Part shown: positions 994-52,394 of the stretch, piece after piece
Layout: every line of letters starts with the position of its first letter
Position numbering within the stretch: the first letter of the stretch is position 1
DNA from: Escherichia coli
GTDB taxonomy: Bacteria; Pseudomonadota; Gammaproteobacteria; Enterobacterales; Enterobacteriaceae
Assembly: GCF_002854065.1 (NCBI RefSeq)
Contig: NZ_CP024154.1
Strand: one strand, 5' to 3'
Length of the DNA stretch: 64,000 nucleotides
Program-made: the position numbers and the translations under genes
Notes under the pieces: model-generated
Database searches by the model: none
What the model saw: the letters and a program-made list of their open reading frames with translations, nothing else
Told to the model about the DNA's origin: nothing

Positions 994-1378
994 AGTATGA
1001 CGGAGACGGGCGGGCAACCGCCCGTTTCTTTTCCGGTAAAGGATGTCGCCGTGCTCCTCTTTATTACTGCGCCGGCTGACGCGGCGCGGCATAAACGCTG
1101 CCTGTGGTCAGTGTCCCGCGTCCGGCCGGGCACGGGACGGGCGCTTTTACCGCTCCCGGCTGGCGTCGGTGACAGTGTACGCCAGCCTGTCGCCCTTTTC
1201 TGATGAACGCCCTTCAAGCCGCTTTCGCGGCATAACCTTGCCGTCAAACAGACGACGGCTGCGGTATTCCACGGTCGGCCTGACCCGTTACCGGACGCGG
1301 TGAACAGCCCACAGGCAGCGGGGAACGGGCACCACAGGGGTGCCCTCCCGGTGCCCTCTGTAAGAGAAGGAGTTTTGT

Positions 1379-2062
1379 ATGTCCCGTTTTGTCCTCGGTA
1401 ACTGCATCGATGTTATGGCCCGTATCCCTGATAACGCCATTGATTTCATCCTCACCGACCCGCCGTACCTCGTCGGTTTCCGTGACCGTTCCGGGCGCAC
1501 CATCGCTGGCGATAAAACCGATGAATGGCTGCAACCGGCCTGTAATGAAATGTACCGCGTACTCAAAAAAGATGCGCTGATGGTCAGCTTCTATGGCTGG
1601 AACCGCGTCGATCGCTTTGTGGCCGCCTGGAAAAATGCGGGATTCAGCGTGGTTGGTCACCTGGTCTTCACCAAAAACTACACATCGAAGGCCGCATATG
1701 TGGGCTATCGCCACGAATGCGCCTACATCCTGGCAAAAGGCCGTCCACGTCTGCCACAAAACCCGCTGCCGGACGTGCTGGGCTGGAAATATTCGGGCAA
1801 TCGCCATCACCCGACGGAAAAGCCCGTTACCAGCCTGCAACCGCTGATTGAGAGCTTCACACACCCGAACGCAATTGTGCTGGACCCGTTTGCAGGCAGC
1901 GGCTCAACCTGCGTCGCCGCCCTCCAGTCCGGACGCCGGTATATCGGTATCGAGCTGCTTGAGCAGTATCACCGTGCCGGGCAGCAACGCCTTGCCGCCG
2001 TGCAACGGGCCATGCAGCAGGGGGCCGCGAATGATGACTGGTTTATGCCGGAGGCTGCGTAA
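1379..2062 (+). CDS. orphan DNA methyltransferase (N6-adenine/N4-cytosine type)
   Basis: DPPY motif (ILTDPPYLVGF) followed by FAGSGST AdoMet-binding motif; SD AGAAGGAG upstream; no adjacent restriction endonuclease. Confidence 0.8.
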   Translation: MSRFVLGNCIDVMARIPDNAIDFILTDPPYLVGFRDRSGRTIAGDKTDEWLQPACNEMYRVLKKDALMVSFYGWNRVDRFVAAWKNAGFSVVGHLVFTKNYTSKAAYVGYRHECAYILAKGRPRLPQNPLPDVLGWKYSGNRHHPTEKPVTSLQPLIESFTHPNAIVLDPFAGSGSTCVAALQSGRRYIGIELLEQYHRAGQQRLAAVQRAMQQGAANDDWFMPEAA

Positions 2063-2284
2063 ATGAACTATGCCGGACACGAAAAACTGCGCGCCGAAGT
2101 GGCGGAGGTGGCCAATGCCATGTGCGACCTGCGTACAACCATGAATGAGATGGAGCAGCGGTACAGCTTTAATGCCGACACCCTGCCGGAACGTCTGGTG
2201 CGTCAGACGCTGTTTCGCGCAAACCGCCTCCTGATGGAGGCATATACCGAAATTCTGGAACTGGATGCGTGCTTTAAAGATTGA
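2063..2284 (+). CDS. hypothetical small protein (73 aa), start abuts the methyltransferase stop
   Basis: ATG immediately after the TAA of the upstream gene (TAAATG); ORF only. Confidence 0.4.
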   Translation: MNYAGHEKLRAEVAEVANAMCDLRTTMNEMEQRYSFNADTLPERLVRQTLFRANRLLMEAYTEILELDACFKD

Positions 2285-2297
2285 GAAGGAGACGAGA

Positions 2298-2732
2298 ATG
2301 TACGGAACATGCGAAACGCTATGCCGGGAGCTGGCAGCAAAGTATCCGGGAGACACGCCGCTGATGCTGGTTATCTGGTCCCCGGAAGAAATTCAGGCCC
2401 TCGCTGACGGAATGGATATTTCCCTGTCCGATCATGAAATCAGGACTGTCCTGGCGCGCCTGGAGGACATCCCGGAAGACCAGCGGACTGAATCCGGTAT
2501 TTCTTCCGGTGCGGCGATGGAGATTATCAAATACGTGAGCGAAAACCGCCAGGTGACCGTCCCTGCTGAACTGCTGGCGTCCCTGATTCAGACCGCTGAA
2601 CAGGCACTGTGGAAACGTGAGTGGGCCGCCCGTGATAACGGCCTCGCCGTTCCGGAATGCGTCACCCGCCGACAGGCGGTGGTTAATCAGGCCCGCGCCC
2701 TGCTGAAAAACAACACACGCGAAAACGACTGA
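2298..2732 (+). CDS. hypothetical leading-region protein (145 aa), paralog of ORF 4435-4857
   Basis: SD GAGAAGGAGA upstream of ATG 2298; shares MY.T..E and R.VTVPA motifs with the 4435 product. Confidence 0.55.
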   Translation: MYGTCETLCRELAAKYPGDTPLMLVIWSPEEIQALADGMDISLSDHEIRTVLARLEDIPEDQRTESGISSGAAMEIIKYVSENRQVTVPAELLASLIQTAEQALWKREWAARDNGLAVPECVTRRQAVVNQARALLKNNTREND

Positions 2733-2776
2733 TGTTATCGCCGCCTCCGGGCGGCGATACAGGGAGACCATGAATC

Positions 2777-3547
2777 ATGAACGAAACGCTGAATGCACTG
2801 ATTTGTCGCCACGCCCGTAACCTGCTGCTGGCGCAGGGCTGGCCGGAAGAGACGGATGTTGACCAGCGAAATCCGAACTATCCGGGCTGGATCAGCATTT
2901 ACGTGCAGCTGGATGCGCCCCGGCTGGCGACGTTACTCGTTAACCGCCACGATGGCGTGCTGCCGCCGCACCTGGCCTCCGCCATTCAGAAACTGACCGG
3001 AACCGTGGCGGAACTTGTACTGTCCGGCAGCCAGTGGCAGGCGCTGCCGGTACTTCCGGCAGACGGAACGCAGGTGTCTTTCCCGTATGCCGGTGAATGG
3101 CTGACGGAGGAAGAAATCAGGGCCGTTCTTGATGCGGTGCACGATGCGGTACGCAGTGTCAGTTGCCGGGTGGCAGAAGATGCGCGGCGTATCAGGGCGG
3201 CGCTGACCACAACCGGTCAGACGTTGCTGACCCGCCAGACGCGCCGCTTTCGCCTGGTTGTGAAGGAAAGCGATTACCCCTGCTGGCTCGATGAAGACGA
3301 CGAAAACCTGCCCGTGGTGCTCGATGCCATCCTGAACCGGGGCGCTCGTTTTTCGTCGGTGGAAATGTATCTGGTCAGTGAGTGTGTGGAGCATATCCTG
3401 TCCAGTGGGCTGGCCTGCGATGTGCTGCGTATACCTGATGAACCGTCCCGTCGCTGGTTTGACCGGGATATTCTGCGGGAGGTGGTCCTGGAAGCCCGGA
3501 CTGAAATCCGCAGCATGGCGGATGCACTGGCGAAAATCCGGAAATGA
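2777..3547 (+). CDS. hypothetical leading-region protein (256 aa)
   Basis: Long ORF with SD AGGGAGA upstream; no recognised motif. Confidence 0.5.
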
Positions 3548-3619
3548 TGACGCTGGCGGGGAAAAATCTCCGCCTTTTCCAGCCGGTCCCCGGAAAGAGC
3601 AAAAGGATGTCGCCGCAGG

Positions 3620-3945
3620 CTCCGCTTTACCCGGCCATGCGGGGCATGGCCTTGTGGGTTTTCAGTTATGTGGCCTCAGCGCCGTGTGCGGGCTGTGCCG
3701 TGCCTCCATCGTAGCCGGGCTTCTGCGGGCGGGTTGCAAGGTAAGGTGAACCGCTGCGGTCACCCGGTCCCTCCTTCCCGTCTGCCGTGATTTTCCGGTC
3801 GTTCACCCGCTCAGATTTCGCGGTCTCACCCTTCAACTCCCGTCAGCCGTGCGCGTCAGGCTGCGGCTTCCCTTGCGCCCTTGCAACCCTGCAGGCCCGG
3901 CAAAGATGGAGGCACGGCACCGCCCGGTGTCGCGGAATATGTGAA
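3620..3945 (+). repeat. repeat family A copy 1: about 330-bp hairpin-rich element, putative single-strand promoter (Frpo/ssi-like)
   Basis: About 95 percent identical to 10567-10892; contains perfect hairpin GGCCATGC-GGG-GCATGGCC; ends about 20 nt before the klcA start. Confidence 0.6.
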
Positions 3946-3962
3946 CAACGGAGGAAAACATC

Positions 3963-4388
3963 ATGCAATATGCGAAACCTGTCACTCTGAACGTTGAAGA
4001 GTGCGACCGTCTGTCTTTTCTGCCTTACCTGTTTGGCCTGGATTTTCTGTATGCCGAAGCGTCTGTATACGCGCTGGCGAAAAAAATGATGCCGGAATAT
4101 GAAGGCGGATTCTGGCACTTCATCCGCCTGCCGGACGGTGGCGGTTACATGATGCCGGATGGCGACCGTTTCCACATGGTGAACGGTGCAAACTGGTTTG
4201 ACCGTACCGTGAGTGCTGATGCCGCAGGCATCATCCTTACCTCCCTTGTGATTAACCGCCAGTTGTGGCTGTACCACGACAGCGGGGATGCAGGGTTGAC
4301 ACACCTGTACAGGATGCGTGATGCGCAGTTGTGGAGCCACATCGAATTTCACCCCGAATGCAACGCGATTTACGCGGCACTTGACTGA
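3963..4388 (+). CDS. klcA: anti-restriction protein, KlcA/ArdB family
   Basis: 141-aa protein with KlcA/ArdB-like sequence and size; SD GGAGGA upstream; leading-region context. Confidence 0.75.
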
Positions 4389-4434
4389 TTAACGGACGGG
4401 GCGGCAATGCCGCCCCTGTAAAGGAGACGAGAAC

Positions 4435-4857
4435 ATGTACTGTACTGTTAAAGAAATCATCCGCGATGTACTGGATACAGACGTGCCGGACAGTGAATGC
4501 GTTTTTGCCGTGGTGCTGACCCGTGGGGATGTGCGTCACATAGCCCGGGACTGGAACCTGTCAGACGATGAGCTGGAAACCGTCATGCAGCGGCTGGACG
4601 ATGCTTTTGTATATGGCGCATGTGACAGAGTTGTTTCCGATATTGTCAATGAACTGATGGAAGAAAAGCGCGCCAGCCGTCATGTGACAGTCCCGGCGGT
4701 GATGCTGGAAAAAGTGATGGCGCTGGCAGGTAGTGAAATGAAGCGCCTGTATGCCGTCGGGAGTGAGAACGGGGGCGACGGTGACGCATTCGTCAGGGAG
4801 GAACTCGAAGCAATGGACGTTGTGTTGCAGGCGCTGGACGGGGAGACGATGTCATGA
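4435..4857 (+). CDS. hypothetical leading-region protein (140 aa), paralog of ORF 2298-2732
   Basis: SD AAAGGAGA upstream; shared MY.T..E, LSD.E..TV..RL.D and R.VTVPA motifs with the 2298 product. Confidence 0.5.
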   Translation: MYCTVKEIIRDVLDTDVPDSECVFAVVLTRGDVRHIARDWNLSDDELETVMQRLDDAFVYGACDRVVSDIVNELMEEKRASRHVTVPAVMLEKVMALAGSEMKRLYAVGSENGGDGDAFVREELEAMDVVLQALDGETMS

Positions 4858-5045
4858 ATATCAGCACAGAAACCCGCGAAATTCTGCGTAATTACAGGGC
4901 CGTGATTAATGCGCGGCGTCGTGAAATGGGGCAGAAACCGCTCACCACCGCGCAGATTGTTGATGAAATCTGCGATTTTGTGGCGAATCAGCAGGCGGTT
5001 TTCCTGGGCGGTCACTACATCCTTCAGGGCAGCAGAAACAGGTGA
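4854..5045 (+). CDS. hypothetical small protein (63 aa), start overlaps upstream stop (ATGA)
   Basis: ORF with translational coupling only. Confidence 0.35.
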   Translation: MNISTETREILRNYRAVINARRREMGQKPLTTAQIVDEICDFVANQQAVFLGGHYILQGSRNR

Positions 5046-47978: not shown

Positions 47979-50900
47979 TCATCGGCCGGGGCTGTGGGAT
48001 TGTGCCTGTTGCAGAGTTTTTTCCTGCCTGTCCTCCGCCTTTTGGCTGTCAGACCACTCTTTCCAGGTCTGCTCAAAACCCAGAGAGCGGAAAAGCTTGT
48101 CCGGTTGCTCTTCCGGTTTGTGGATGGCGGCAAACAACGGGGAGTCCTGTTGCTTCAGGTGAAACTGCATTATTTGTGGGGACGGACGCTGATGATTATT
48201 CTCATCATGGTTAACAGCTTCACCGTAACCGGCAAACTGCAGACCGTTATCCGTCAGGGCATTGATAACCAGCTGACGGTTGTCAGCTGACGGGGTGGCC
48301 AGTGCCGGGTAAAGGGTGCCGTTCAGGCGGACCACGCCCTGCAGATGATCATCTGCGCTGTGGACCAGCAGAAGATTCAACTGACGATTGTCCTTATCGG
48401 CAGAGGCGATGGCTGGTATCAGTTCATTGGGGGCATTACCAGCGAGGGGGAGTCGCATTGATTGATCCTGAGGTGCTGATGCAGGTTGCCTGTCTTCACC
48501 AATGTACAGATTATTGGGAGGATTTTTGGGGGAGCGAACTTCCTGCATTATCTGTGGCCAGTGTTGTTGCATCTGTAACATCACCTGGCTGAATGTTGCC
48601 ATCGGAAACTCCAGGGTATGCTGACCCGCATGAGGTTGGTCATTATTAACGGTAATGCCGTTACTGACCGGGGTTATGGCCCAGATATTACGGATACGAT
48701 CCCGCGTTTCACCGGACAGCCGGAATGTTTCTCTCGCCTGCAGTGTCAGTGTGACGGGGTCACCCTTCTGATGGTTTTTGACCAGTTCTTCCAGGCCGTT
48801 TCCCCAGTATTCCCGTTTGCCACTGCGGTTGGTGAGCTCCACAAAAAAGCAGCGCCCTTTTCCGGGCGCATACTCTTTTTCTCCGTAGTTTGTCAGGACG
48901 GCAGTCACACTTTCACCGGGGCTGAGCTTGCCGGGCGGCTCTTCCACCGGTGTGTCGGGTTGCTGCGGCTGTGCACTGACAGGGGCTTTTTCTGGCGCAG
49001 ACGACGGGGCGGCGGGGTGTTCCGGTCTGTCGGCCCGGGGGGCTTCAGCTTTTGCCGTGACCGGCGCTTCCGGATGCGGTGTTTCAGCCGTACTGCCTGC
49101 TGTTTGTTCAGCCTCTGCCTTCGGTGACACAGGGGGGGCCGGTTGGGCCATTGTTGTCTCTTCCGGTGACTGGCGGTTGAGTTCCGGCGTGGGTCTGTGG
49201 GTGACAATGGCATCATGCGCCATCTCTTTTTCCTTGCGGAGTTTTTCCAGTGCTGCCCGCTGGGCCGGGAGTTTCATGCGAACCTTGATGTCGTATTCGA
49301 CAATCAGCTGCATGGCTTTTTGCTTAAAGGCATCACTGCCGGTCAGCTCGATAACGCCGCCATAGAAGTTGGTGGCCACAGCAAGGGCAGCCAGGACCTT
49401 TTTGTCATCCGCGCTGGCGCCATCCACCATTTCGAGACAGTAGAGTCTGTCCAGGAAGGCGGGTTCACCGTCAACGCTGTAGAGCGCAGTCCTGTCGGGA
49501 AACTCTTTGTGTGTAAGATTTTTAAGGATCTCGTCCAGGTTGTGCCGCTGCGGACTGTCGGGACGGCGGGGTGCAAAGATAATCGTGTCCGGTTCCGCTG
49601 ACGATGTGTCTTCCGGGCTGGTTTCCGGTGGTGATGGTGGTGCGACCTCCTCTGTTGCTGTTTCAGCCTCCGTGGGCTTTTTCTCCTGAATAACGGAAGG
49701 TTCTGAGGTGCGTGATTTCACACCGGTCAGAAAACGGCGCAGACGGCTGAAAAGCGATGGCGTTTCAGGGCGGGCTGCTTCATTCGCTGTGCTGGTCTCA
49801 GTGGCGGACACAAGACGCTCTTCCTGCAGTTTATCTTCAGCCGTCGGTTCAGCGGTGGCCTGCCGGACTGGCTGAGTTTCTGCAGGTTCAGAAGGTGAGG
49901 CTGTTTCTGCTGTGCCGGTGTTGTGAACAGCAACCGTGGCATCGGCATTGAGCTCCTCAGCGGGTGCGTTCCTGTTGTCATCGGTGATGTCAGAGGAGTG
50001 CTCTGCGCCGGTCTCAGCGGCAGACGCAACGCTCTTTTCCTGTGCTTTATCTTCTGCCGTCAGTTCAGTGGTCACCTGCTGAACTGGCCGCATCCCGGCC
50101 GGTTCAGAAACTGTATTTGTCTCCGCGTTGTCGGTGTTGTGAACAGTGGGGGCCCCCGGAGTGTCAGCGTTGAGATCTTCCGCAAATGCGCTCCAGTCGT
50201 CAGCGCTGGCCATGGAAACCTGCACTTGTTCTTCAGACTGCGTTGTGGTGGTGTGCTGTGTCCCGGCCGCGTCGGAGAGGGAGGTTTCCGGTGTGTCTTC
50301 ACTCCGGGGATGTTCTTCTGCCTGCGTGCTCTGGTTGTCAGCGGTGGTGGCAGAGGCATTTTCTTCACCGGTATCAGCGGTAGCCACAGAGGCATTTTCT
50401 TCTCTGGTATCGGCAGCGGAAACAACGTTCTCGTGTGGTTTATCTTCTGCGGTCGGTTCAGTGGTTGCCTGCTGCACGGACTGCATCCCGGCAGGTTCAG
50501 GAAGCGTTCCTGTTTCTGCTGTGTCGCTGTTGTGAGCGGTGTCTGTACCTGTGGCGTCTGTATTGAGGTCTTCCTGGTCGCCAGCGGTAGGCACAGAGGT
50601 ATTCTCTGTGCCGGTATCAGCGGCAGACGCAATATTCTCCAGTGGTTTATCCGGGGATAACGTCTCCGCAGTTACTGATTGCAGGGATGCATAGGCGGCA
50701 TAGTCATCTTCATATGCCTGGTTTTCTGTATCGTCGGAGTGGGTGTCATAAGGCGTATCCTGTGTCGCCAGCTCCGTTTCCGGGGCTGTGCTCTGTCTGT
50801 TTTCAGGGGACATTTGTGGCTTCTCATCTTTTACCGGTGTGAATATCAGGTTGTCGATCACGACAGCCTCACGATGGTCGGCAGTGTCACTGTTGGGTGT

Positions 50901-52040
50901 GGGGATACCGATATGTTTTAACTGTGCATTCATGGCATTCTGAAAGTTGTCCCGTCCCCGGCTGGCGTCCAGGTCATTGAAATCGGTCAGTCCCTGTGCT
51001 TTTTCCGCCTCCGTAAAGGCCGGAATAATGACTTCGCCATTCGTGACTTCTGCGGCCTTTGTTGCACTAAAAACCCCTTTGTTAATTTCCCGTTGATGAT
51101 CGTTGTCGGCACAGAAGACAAAGGGGCTGTCAGTCCAGATTTGGCGGGCATTTTCTGCCACGGCAATCATATTGCTGGCATCAACTGTCATCAGAACCGG
51201 AAGGCCGGTTGCTTCGTGCAGGGAGGCTGCAGTAGCGTAACCTTCCGCAAATAACAGGGGGCGGCCATTTTCCGGGGTTCCGAAGGTGAACCAGTTGCCG
51301 GTTTTCTCGGAGTCTTTCAGAATGCGGGCATCCTTCCCGCCGGTGACCGGAATACGCTGGTACGAACGTATTTCTCCCCGGCCGTTGCTGAAGGGAATAA
51401 CCAGCTCATTTTTATTGTTCAGCCGCACGCCAGGCGCGGCCCGGATGCCCTTGCGCGTCAGGTATTCATGTGCTGTTGCCTGTGGCAACCTGTTAATATA
51501 GGAGCGGGCATAGCCGGCCTGTTTGTTATACTGTTGCTGCAGTTTACGTGCGTTATCATCGCGCTGTTGCTGAGCGAATGCCCGCAGATGCAGTCTGGCC
51601 AGAGGATCGTGTTGTTCTCCGCCGGAAAATACCCAGTTTGTGGGACTGTCATCGGCGCTCCGGTAGTCGCGGTACCAGCCGGCGGGACGACCATCAAGAT
51701 AGGCCCTGTATGCGCCACTTTTGGCCCCTTTTTTGTCATCCCGGGTGGCCACTCTGTGTATGGCTCCGTCCATCTGTGGCAATCCCTGAATAACCAGCCC
51801 GGCGTTTTCCAGGACCTGAGCAAATTCAGTGACCGGATCGCCGGCATCCATCGACAGTTCCTGTGGCCGGGGTAACCAGCGCTCCAGCAGTGAAAGTTCG
51901 GTACCCGCCCGGGCATACCAGAGCTTTTTTTCTGGATCCCATGCGACAGCTTTGCGGCCATTTAACGGGGGAACCGCATTTTTTACGGCTTCTGTCTCCT
52001 CAGGCGGGACAGCAAGCCAGGTTCGATATCTGGACTTCAT
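47979..52040 (-). CDS. sogL: Sog DNA primase (SogL), transferred with the DNA during conjugation
   Basis: 1353 aa; N-terminal primase/Toprim-like region (EGYATAASLHEATGLPVLMTVDASN); long acidic repeat-containing linker. Confidence 0.85.
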   Translation of the reverse strand: MKSRYRTWLAVPPEETEAVKNAVPPLNGRKAVAWDPEKKLWYARAGTELSLLERWLPRPQELSMDAGDPVTEFAQVLENAGLVIQGLPQMDGAIHRVATRDDKKGAKSGAYRAYLDGRPAGWYRDYRSADDSPTNWVFSGGEQHDPLARLHLRAFAQQQRDDNARKLQQQYNKQAGYARSYINRLPQATAHEYLTRKGIRAAPGVRLNNKNELVIPFSNGRGEIRSYQRIPVTGGKDARILKDSEKTGNWFTFGTPENGRPLLFAEGYATAASLHEATGLPVLMTVDASNMIAVAENARQIWTDSPFVFCADNDHQREINKGVFSATKAAEVTNGEVIIPAFTEAEKAQGLTDFNDLDASRGRDNFQNAMNAQLKHIGIPTPNSDTADHREAVVIDNLIFTPVKDEKPQMSPENRQSTAPETELATQDTPYDTHSDDTENQAYEDDYAAYASLQSVTAETLSPDKPLENIASAADTGTENTSVPTAGDQEDLNTDATGTDTAHNSDTAETGTLPEPAGMQSVQQATTEPTAEDKPHENVVSAADTREENASVATADTGEENASATTADNQSTQAEEHPRSEDTPETSLSDAAGTQHTTTTQSEEQVQVSMASADDWSAFAEDLNADTPGAPTVHNTDNAETNTVSEPAGMRPVQQVTTELTAEDKAQEKSVASAAETGAEHSSDITDDNRNAPAEELNADATVAVHNTGTAETASPSEPAETQPVRQATAEPTAEDKLQEERLVSATETSTANEAARPETPSLFSRLRRFLTGVKSRTSEPSVIQEKKPTEAETATEEVAPPSPPETSPEDTSSAEPDTIIFAPRRPDSPQRHNLDEILKNLTHKEFPDRTALYSVDGEPAFLDRLYCLEMVDGASADDKKVLAALAVATNFYGGVIELTGSDAFKQKAMQLIVEYDIKVRMKLPAQRAALEKLRKEKEMAHDAIVTHRPTPELNRQSPEETTMAQPAPPVSPKAEAEQTAGSTAETPHPEAPVTAKAEAPRADRPEHPAAPSSAPEKAPVSAQPQQPDTPVEEPPGKLSPGESVTAVLTNYGEKEYAPGKGRCFFVELTNRSGKREYWGNGLEELVKNHQKGDPVTLTLQARETFRLSGETRDRIRNIWAITPVSNGITVNNDQPHAGQHTLEFPMATFSQVMLQMQQHWPQIMQEVRSPKNPPNNLYIGEDRQPASAPQDQSMRLPLAGNAPNELIPAIASADKDNRQLNLLLVHSADDHLQGVVRLNGTLYPALATPSADNRQLVINALTDNGLQFAGYGEAVNHDENNHQRPSPQIMQFHLKQQDSPLFAAIHKPEEQPDKLFRSLGFEQTWKEWSDSQKAEDRQEKTLQQAQSHSPGR

Positions 52041-52103
52041 GTCGTTCTCCGGGGATTAAAGATGAGGGCGTTGTGATACGCCGGGATGATGAACAAAAGA
52101 GGG

Positions 52104-52394
52104 TTATTCCGTTCCGCGCCATTCACGGGGTAATTCTGTGCGATGCCGGTACCACCAGGGACGGCCTGACGCCTGTTTACCCTGCACCAGGCTGTACAGA
52201 CGCCGGCAGAGCGTCCGGACAGTCCATCCTGAGTACCCCAGGAGCACAAAAAACAGCAGAATGCCGCTGCACACCCAGAATGTTGTTTTTGACGGATACG
52301 GAAACAGCAGCAGGTAAATCATGGTAAACGGCAACGGGACACCATAAATATTCAGTGGCGGAGTGACATCCCGCCAGAAGCCTTCGCGTTTCAT
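52104..52394 (-). CDS. TraK-like small membrane protein (by position)
   Basis: 96-aa ORF coupled to traJ. Confidence 0.45.
   Translation of the reverse strand: MKREGFWRDVTPPLNIYGVPLPFTMIYLLLFPYPSKTTFWVCSGILLFFVLLGYSGWTVRTLCRRLYSLVQGKQASGRPWWYRHRTELPREWRGTE

Follow-up and report, generated by a model that had tools for sequence, protein, structure and literature searches.

The window (the whole 64,000-nucleotide stretch of Escherichia coli DNA that was analysed) carries at 47979..52040 the sog gene of an IncK2/Z plasmid, encoding a SogL of 1353 aa; the gene and all of the features described below lie on the minus strand. It was identified from the list of open reading frames, from CDS identity (the "DNA primase" CDS of CP056607.1, an IncK2/Z, MPF_I plasmid, is 100% identical to it) and from alignment to SogL. 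By its sequence, the 1353-aa ORF is a Sog-type conjugative primase of the MPF_I transfer operon; its naming as a SogL primase in the first-pass annotation was borne out by the EGYATA primase motif (aa 266-271, 51228..51245), by the traK and traL neighbours, and by alignment to SogL from end to end outside the linker. EGYATA, a motif that marks I/P-type plasmid primases, was invariant in 6/6 aligned Sog proteins. The flanking traK-like and traL-like genes were read from the annotation of the identical plasmid CP056607.1, and IncI-type records are arranged likewise. The SogL proteins of LC567071.1 and HG428759.1 aligned with the window protein at both terminal parts, the linker excepted; the SogS portion shares 49% identity with IncI1-type SogL, and megablast matched both ends of the gene in 1341 IncI-type records. 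The NCBIfam search of the window protein gave no match, and neither the N-terminal 409 aa nor the C-terminal 554 aa found a credible relative when searched by sequence against the PDB. For ColIb-P9 and R64, work referenced in PMC6112013 has established both primase activity and entry of the protein into the recipient cell; transposon data for IncI plasmids have shown no more than that the SogS-coding part is required (PMC4288162, PMC10286972).

Two Pfam domains were found on either side of the protein centre: DUF5710 at aa 6-57 (51870..52025; PF18974, E 1.2e-8, 38.2 bits against a curated cut-off of 27) and LPD7 at aa 852-935 (49236..49487; PF18821, E 1.4e-9, 34.9 bits against a curated cut-off of 26.5). 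A second low-complexity linker, rich in P (23%), A (21%) and E (13%), occupies aa 961-1035 (48936..49160), and the FTPV-style anchor segment that holds it exceeds its IncI1 SogL counterpart by 24 aa. The putative start of the shorter product SogS is an in-frame ATG (M410, 50811..50813) that aligns with M412 of a 1254-aa SogL; starts of the M412 type yield the 843/844-aa SogS of R64 and pESBL (PMC6112013, PMC4288162). SogS would here be expressed from M410 as a product of 944 aa. Every K/Z allele examined had ATG or GTG at this putative start and a purine-rich stretch lying 7-12 nt before it, and the repeat region described next sets in about 40 residues (~125 nt) downstream of the start codon.

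Self-comparison revealed an array of diverged units arranged head to tail at aa 452-760 (49761..50687). Where three repeats of roughly 210 bp had been proposed from a reading of the letters, the repeats themselves stood, while their number and size had to be revised to three full units and one partial unit of 201, 393, 216 and 117 nt. Based on blastn self-matches and unit alignments, unit 1 spans aa 452-518 (67 aa, 50487..50687), unit 2 aa 519-649 (131 aa, 50094..50486) and unit 3 aa 650-721 (72 aa, 49878..50093); unit 4 (aa 722-760, 39 aa, 49761..49877) comprises the head half only, and was placed by a match to the head HMM (aa 723-754, E 1e-18) and by alignments. Unit 2 is of double length because it contains an insert of about 59 aa, which includes a 36-nt mini-duplication (DTREENASVATA / DTGEENASATTA; 50340..50411) detected as three repeat families (D2, D3, D5) spaced by 36 nt. 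The units abut without a spacer and the period is not uniform. The junction motif quoted earlier, EPAGM.VQQ.TTE.TAEDK, was indeed present at the boundaries of units 1/2 and 2/3, with a degenerate copy at the boundary of units 3/4. Paralogous blocks were 38-63% identical in amino acids; the units are old, diverged and unequal in length.

The claim of significant internal repetition in the middle of the gene was upheld. Comparison of the gene with itself by blastn gave off-diagonal matches across gene nt 1390-2254 (window 49787-50651) at 69-77% identity, with E-values of 1.8e-26, 9e-24 and 1.4e-21, and a repeat search recovered a 164-nt family in three copies (49802-49965, 50018-50181 and 50411-50574). 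Local protein alignments of the units, scored against a baseline of 1000 composition-preserving shuffles, gave z = 7.4-11.3 for five of the six pairs, and z = 4.4 for unit 1 against the partial unit 4. Tandem Repeats Finder at a minimum score of 30 reported no array, which is explained by the strong divergence of the copies and by their indels; blastp of the window protein against itself gave the diagonal only, and the protein was further compared by the unit-by-unit alignments against shuffles and by a fragment-against-whole scan. Pfam held no repeat family matching the ~70-residue units. A literature search on sog or primase repeats in I-complex, IncK and IncK2 plasmids retrieved no description of repeats and no experiment on the linker.

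The array is strongly biased in composition: A (16.5%), T (16.2%), E (12.6%), S (8.7%) and D (7.8%) make up 62% of aa 452-760, the net charge of these 309 aa is -51, and hydrophobic residues account for 11% as against 26-27% in the flanking domains. Together with the Pfam domains, this composition agrees with its description as an acidic region in the middle of the protein, with the primase part on one side and the LPD7/C-terminal part on the other. In an AF2 model of the SogS portion, the linker had pLDDT values of 25-35 with just two short helices, compared with 50-73 for the folded parts; the model gives only weak evidence for disorder because it was poor everywhere (mean pLDDT 36, from a 6-sequence alignment). 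Flexibility or disorder of the linker is thus suggested by composition, relaxed constraint and a low-confidence model taken together.

Close relatives carry 2.5, 3.5 or 4.5 units in proteins of 1222-1463 aa, and the indels are always in register. The segment from FTPV to SLFSRLR ranged from 231 to 472 aa across alleles, with every other segment constant in length, and so the earlier suggestion of repeat expansion was confirmed. In a complete IncK2/Z plasmid with the 1463-aa, 4.5-unit allele, the long unit was duplicated; the 1338-1343-aa alleles were without one copy of the 36-nt mini-duplication. Deletion alleles had lost exactly 216 and 393 nt, with junctions at CTGAGACC (8 nt) and GCAGAAGATAAA (12 nt), which are common to neighbouring units; this microhomology at two junctions indicates that expansion and contraction do occur. 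Among complete plasmids of PLSDB (60 of 443 records sampled), the 3.5-unit span was found in 59/60 and copy-number variants made up about 1/60. The dominance of the 3.5-unit form may reflect selection on length. The same architecture was common to alleles whose linker DNA is only ~81% identical, and is therefore old.

Constraint on the repeats is relaxed, with dN/dS of 0.46-0.98 as compared with 0.03-0.18 in the primase, in LPD7 and in most C-terminal comparisons. Against IncI1 SogL the linker was saturated and unalignable, while both protein ends aligned. Head and tail blocks of the paralogous units gave dN/dS values of 0.15-0.44 in eight of nine comparisons (0.78 for H3 against H4) at dS of ~1, and ~0.32 when pooled (dN ~0.31, dS ~0.95); these blocks were picked for alignability, which biases the ratio downward. 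At larger divergence the orthologous ratio was also below 1 (0.41 in the blocks, 0.67 in the rest of the region). Since the blocks are better kept in protein than at synonymous sites, and since the orthologous ratio is below 1, the peptide is not free to drift, and this hints that the linker is more than a spacer.

Three short segments of the linker and its borders were also compared. The acidic-aromatic peptide YEDDYAAYASL (aa 443-453, 50682..50714), here called the Y motif, lies directly before unit 1, and similar peptides (EEYENYSAYQEL, GEYDDFRAYEEMM) were seen by eye in the otherwise unalignable linkers of IncI1 SogL and P0123; a strict regex for it did not match the window protein itself, and the Y motif therefore rests on by-eye alignment. 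The W motif ADDWSAFAEDLNA (aa 613-625, 50166..50204) lies inside the unit-2 insert, at one of the two helices predicted by AF2 (with low confidence). Its regex matched the window lineage, IncI1 SogL (KDWREFEAEL), P0123 (DDWNAFAEDL) and P0132 (QDWQHFEEEM), compared with 0.01 proteins expected by chance; we regard the conserved DDWxAFAEDL as a candidate, and as the single lead in the linker worth following. The basic amphipathic segment SLFSRLRRFLTG (aa 762-773, 49722..49757) closes the acidic linker, served as an alignment anchor kept in all alleles, and was also predicted by AF2, at low confidence, to be helical.

We consider it probable (about 0.68) that the repeats form a disordered acidic spacer that arose through old duplications of a ~70-aa unit and whose length is still altered by slippage or short-homology recombination. 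In SogL the spacer would act as a tether between the N-terminal primase part and the LPD7/C-terminal part, and in the shorter SogS it would make up the N-terminal ~350 residues. Such slippage or recombination among diverged units would insert or delete whole units in frame, and Sog would tolerate the change in length because the segment acts mainly through its length, flexibility and negative charge and not through a fold.

Two other accounts of the repetition were weighed. One is that the repeats are an artefact of a low-complexity acidic region, as the strong bias of the region and the null result of Tandem Repeats Finder would allow. We rejected it, and give it next to no credence: composition-preserving shuffles never reached the observed scores, blastn E-values extended to 1e-26, the equally biased IncI1 linker gave no self-matches in the same test, and alleles differ by unit-sized indels in register. 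The other is that the repetition serves the DNA or RNA (as iterons, a recombination site or an element for SogS translation) and that the protein repeats are a by-product, a proposal to which the detectability of the repeats in DNA and their onset ~125 nt past the putative SogS start lend some colour. The copies are, however, 69-77% identical without long exact cores (the longest identities at the two mapped junctions being 8-12 nt), every allele indel keeps the frame, and divergence is greatest at synonymous sites (dS ~0.95, dN ~0.31), which is the opposite of nucleotide-level constraint; a DNA-level element was rejected on the last ground and is, in our estimation, highly improbable. Open reading frames on other frames or the other strand of the repeat region (49923-50660, plus; 50072-50632, minus) were likewise rejected as genes, being by-products of the biased composition.

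It is also conceivable, if unlikely, that the units are functional modules, i.e., multivalent short linear motifs that dock a partner, with copy number tuning avidity. Candidate motifs would be the unit head (..VQQ.TTEPTAEDK..), the unit tail (EDLNAD...HNTD.AET...EPAG) and the DDWxAFAEDL helix; candidate partners would be the I-type secretion machinery or coupling protein, single-stranded-DNA-binding proteins, or the basic DNA-binding surface of Sog itself. The low paralogue dN/dS of the heads and tails despite dS of ~1, the retention of the architecture across diverged alleles, the conservation of the W motif in four divergent linkers, the helix predicted at it by AF2, and the fact that the unit doubled in the 4.5-unit allele is the one bearing the W motif all speak for such modules. 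Against them, neither IncI1 SogL nor any of the distant relatives, which do the same job, has the head and tail motifs; natural alleles exist without one unit, and the 1222-aa P0044 allele is without the W motif; and the choice of blocks biases dN/dS down, the orthologous value in the blocks being little under that elsewhere. A further elaboration, in which the array is no passive spacer but a tunable segment of the exported Sog proteins for multivalent docking or DNA mimicry, strikes us as improbable. The DDWxAFAEDL helix, possibly with head and tail peptides, would then bind a basic surface (the ssDNA-binding region of Sog, the I-type coupling/secretion apparatus or a recipient protein would be candidates), and the number of units (2.5-4.5) would determine how efficiently Sog is exported or DNA is protected during conjugation.

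On balance, the repeat region gives the impression of a common kind of spacer that tolerates changes in length, rather than of a new system, and a specialist would find none of these results on the sog repeats surprising. Their use is practical in part: sog is a core transfer gene of the I-complex plasmids (IncI1, K, B/O, Z), by which ESBL and AmpC resistance genes are disseminated, and a length-polymorphic middle has consequences for plasmid typing, core-gene alignment and short-read assembly; the polymorphism accounts for the many primase annotations of different length (1222-1463 aa). The analysis also marks out the parts of Sog under constraint, and puts forward DDWxAFAEDL as a candidate site of interaction, open to test, in a protein whose role apart from priming is still little understood.

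The closest known systems are SogL and SogS of IncI1 R64 and ColIb-P9, which share with the window sog the position in the tra operon, the N-terminal part with DUF5710 and EGYATA, LPD7 and the 321-aa C-terminus, the aligned internal in-frame start, and an acidic centre of several hundred residues, the sequence of which is not homologous. Between the same anchors, the IncI1-type SogL (1254-1267 aa) has ~303 aa of linker devoid of repeats, of self-matches and of matches to the unit HMMs, as compared with 362 aa and 3.5 units in the window protein; and in the window plasmid traK and sog are not separated by a nuc gene. The unusual length had been attributed to the repeats, and this was correct in part: the linker contributes 59 of the 99 residues extra to IncI1, two other low-complexity segments add 18 and 24 aa, and since the repeat-free IncI1 linker is already ~300 aa long, the repeats explain only part of the excess. 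Nor is 1353 aa exceptional, because the Sog-like proteins examined (of at least 900 aa) span 913 to 1649 aa.

The LPD7 "polyvalent" proteins of conjugative elements, including the IncM/L Pri primase, have in common with the window Sog the layout DUF5710-linker-LPD7-C-terminal part. Many contain repeats upstream of LPD7 (for example P0210, ~7 x 33 aa; P0126, ~5 x 32 aa; P0214, ~4.5 x 30 aa) whose sequence and period bear no relation to those of the ~70-aa unit. The ~70-aa unit itself, judged by the unit HMMs, occurs only in the IncK/B/O/Z-type sog lineage. Of 51 distant Sog-like proteins, about 20 (~40%) have their own unrelated internal repeats, located upstream of LPD7 in 6/6 checked and between DUF5710 and LPD7 in 4/6; growth of repeats upstream of LPD7 has thus taken place repeatedly in this family of exported polyvalent proteins. 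More generally, the head-to-tail units, low complexity, relaxed constraint, unit-number polymorphism and short-homology in-frame junctions of the window sog are those of variable-number in-frame repeats in disordered linkers and stalks. The window units differ from that class in being old, diverged and unequal, with rare copy-number variants, and in belonging to a protein that is cytoplasmic, is not a surface protein and, according to the IncI1 Sog literature, is exported to the recipient cell.

The repeat region lies in an open reading frame of 1353 residues (47979-52040, minus strand), the product of which carries an EGYATA motif (aa 266-271), which we take to be typical of I/P-type plasmid primases, along with Pfam matches to DUF5710 (aa 6-57) and LPD7 (aa 852-935). 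Alignment with annotated SogL of IncI-type plasmids covers the N-terminal ~410 and the C-terminal ~590 residues; the middle gave no alignment with these proteins. The frame is 100% identical to a "DNA primase" coding sequence, flanked by traK-like and traL-like genes, of E. coli plasmid pRHBSTW-00321_4 (CP056607.1; IncK2/Z replicon, MOBP relaxase, MPF_I transfer system). Motif, domains, gene neighbors and the alignment of both ends together justify, on sequence grounds, naming it sog, an already known gene of I-complex plasmids. A nuc gene (EDTA-resistant nuclease) lies between traK and sogL in IncI1-type plasmids (HG428759.1, 479-1030); within the window's IncK2/Z plasmid nuc is absent from the traK-sog junction (52040-52391) and sog directly follows traK.

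We examined the repetition at the DNA and protein levels. Off-diagonal blastn self-matches of sog were restricted to gene nt 1390-2254 (window 49787-50651), at 69-77% identity (E = 1.8e-26, 9e-24 and 1.4e-21), and a repeat search of the DNA gave a 164-nt family of three copies with 216- and 393-nt spacings; Tandem Repeats Finder missed the sog linker repeats. The first-pass annotation had placed three repeats of ~210 bp here: the repetition is real, but it comprises three full units and a partial one with unequal periods, all on the minus strand, i.e., U1 (aa 452-518, 67 aa; 50487-50687), U2 (aa 519-649, 131 aa; 50094-50486), U3 (aa 650-721, 72 aa; 49878-50093) and partial U4 (aa 722-760, 39 aa; 49761-49877). 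U2 is a normal unit broken by an insert of ~59 aa that includes a 36-nt mini-duplication (50340-50411, minus strand). For five of the six unit pairs, local alignment scores exceeded those of 1000 composition-preserving shuffles by 7.4-11.3 standard deviations, and U1 versus partial U4 gave z = 4.4; these scores, and an IncI1-type linker free of internal repeats, excluded a compositional artefact. Two frames overlapping the repeats (49923-50660, plus strand, 245 aa; 50072-50632, minus strand, 186 aa) most probably arise from the skewed, repetitive composition rather than being genes.

Residues 452-760 are rich in A, T, E, S and D, with a net charge of -51 and a hydrophobic share of 11% versus 26-27% in the flanking domains. 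Comparison with three other K/Z-type alleles gave a dN/dS of 0.46-0.98 in the repeats; values were 0.03-0.18 in the primase and LPD7 parts and in most comparisons of the C-terminal part. Set against IncI1-type SogL, the linker shows saturation and cannot be aligned. The SogS portion was modelled with AF2 from a six-sequence alignment; the model, poor overall (mean pLDDT 36), left the linker at pLDDT 25-35 (folded parts, 50-73) and essentially without secondary structure, its sole helices being DDWSAFAEDLN (aa 613-623) and SLFSRLRRFL (aa 763-772). Jointly, these properties point to an intrinsically disordered acidic linker.

The number of units does vary. Among 120 close relatives of 1222-1463 aa, HMMs of the unit head (H) and tail (T) resolved plans of 2.5 units (HT-HT-H, 1222-1284 aa), 3.5 units (HT-HT-HT-H, 1322-1355 aa) and 4.5 units (HT-HT-HT-HT-H, 1405-1463 aa), with length change restricted to the segment between the FTPV and SLFSRLR anchors (231-472 aa) and other segments constant. 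The 1463-aa allele of the complete IncK2/Z plasmid NZ_CP080167.1 has the long insert-bearing unit duplicated (88% identity over 592 nt). DNA-level mapping of two deletion alleles showed losses of exactly 216 nt, with crossover within a shared octamer, CTGAGACC, and exactly 393 nt, within a shared 12-mer, GCAGAAGATAAA; such short microhomologies suggest that units are lost by slippage or by recombination at short homologies, and we infer that they are too short for k-mer assembler artefacts. Unit-number variants are rare: 59 of 60 records, spaced evenly among 443 linker-matching PLSDB records, had the 3.5-unit span. This plan is old, as it is common to alleles whose linker DNA is only ~81% identical.

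Synonymous divergence across sog was strongly mosaic against three other alleles. One of these differed from the window's sog by dS 0.22 in the primase part and 0.014 in the C-terminal part, and that of NZ_MW390523.1 by 0.018 in the repeats and 0.27 in the C-terminal part, which indicates probable recombination among the sog genes of distinct I-complex plasmids. Within the C-terminal domain of the NZ_MW390523.1 allele 15 residues are wholly different (window aa ~1083-1097, ~48750-48794; ERSPSSPGKPEWVR versus ETFRLSGETRDRIR) amid near-identical sequence; this resembles the outcome of two mutually compensating frameshifts or of a small patch replacement.

The sog gene of R64 yields SogL (1255 aa) and, via an in-frame restart, SogS (844 aa) (PMC6112013). 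From the pESBL coordinates (PMC4288162), the SogS start, M412 of the 1254-aa SogL, aligns with M410 here (50811-50813); at this putative start two K/Z alleles have ATG and two have GTG, with a purine-rich stretch upstream. If M410 is used, the repeats would begin ~40 residues into a putative 944-aa SogS, forming an N-terminal tail there and an internal tether in SogL. The HG428759.1 sogL (1084-4887, 1267 aa) was deposited with a GTG start 12 codons upstream of the ATG of other records (1254/1255 aa), an inconsistency that inflates apparent length differences between records.

The suggestion that repeats make the protein unusually long held in part. IncI1-type SogL showed neither internal repeats at E < 1e-3 nor a unit-HMM match, yet its linker already measures ~303 aa, versus 362 aa here between the same anchors; the rest of the excess is split between two further low-complexity segments (+18 and +24 aa). 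The +24-aa segment surrounds a second linker between the LPD7 region and C-terminal domain (aa 961-1035, 48936-49160; P 23%, A 21%, E 13%). Searching 1.84 billion representative proteins supplied 51 Sog-like ones with 900 aa or more for examination, and these span 913-1649 aa. About 20 of them carry their own internal repeats, upstream of LPD7 in all six checked and, given a DUF5710 match in four of these, between the two domains there. Such repeats are unrelated to our units in sequence and period (P0210, about 7 copies of 33 aa; P0126, about 5 of 32 aa; P0214, about 4.5 of 30 aa), so repeats have grown in this linker repeatedly and independently within the family. The ~78-aa repeats of the distant 1423-aa protein P0124 (aa 440-742; e.g., ELDAATLVQNAGADPAYREGLLSALAQDAGDLQLNGQPVDAAAFAE) lack a low-complexity composition and seem helical; some members may thus hold a folded repeat domain in place of a disordered spacer.

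We consider the repeat linker, with a probability of roughly two in three, to be a flexible, negatively charged, length-tolerant spacer, its repeat structure being a by-product of the lengthening and shortening of such segments. The main rival, in which the units, or short motifs embedded in them, would function as docking sites, draws on a pooled dN/dS of ~0.32 (dS ~0.95) between paralogous head/tail blocks, orthologous dN/dS still being 0.41-0.67, and on an acidic-aromatic motif in the U2 insert, DDWSAFAEDL (50166-50204, minus strand, aa 613-625), kept in otherwise unalignable linkers as KDWREFEAEL (IncI1 SogL of HG428759.1, aa 535-544) and, in the distant Sog-like proteins P0123 and P0132, DDWNAFAEDL (aa 609-618) and QDWQHFEEEM (aa 508-517). 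The pattern [DEKQ][DE]W..F.[AE][DE][LM] occurs in four mutually unalignable linkers (window lineage, IncI1, P0123 and P0132), with 0.01 proteins expected by chance. AF2 places a low-confidence helix there, and the peptide is a candidate for a short linear motif that mediates interaction. Yet IncI1 SogL does the same job without the unit motifs, and natural alleles lack one unit or even this motif, leaving docking the less likely reading. A DNA-level role for the repeats is unlikely because divergence is greatest at synonymous sites. A second acidic-aromatic peptide, YEDDYAAYASL (50682-50714, minus strand, aa 443-453), resembles EEYENYSAYQEL of IncI1 SogL and GEYDDFRAYEEMM of P0123 by eye only, since a strict regex missed the window copy; it precedes the DDW-type motif here and in P0123 and follows it in IncI1.

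In-frame repeats that vary in number within a disordered linker are a phenomenon of a known kind; the searchable literature yielded no description of these sog repeats, so their anatomy and polymorphism appear to be undocumented detail. The one lead meriting experiment is the conserved DDWxAFAEDL motif, carried by a protein that is exported to the recipient cell and has a non-primase role besides. The R64-type SogL of IncI1 plasmids resembles the window protein at both ends, but its linker is repeat-free, unlike the 3.5 units found here.
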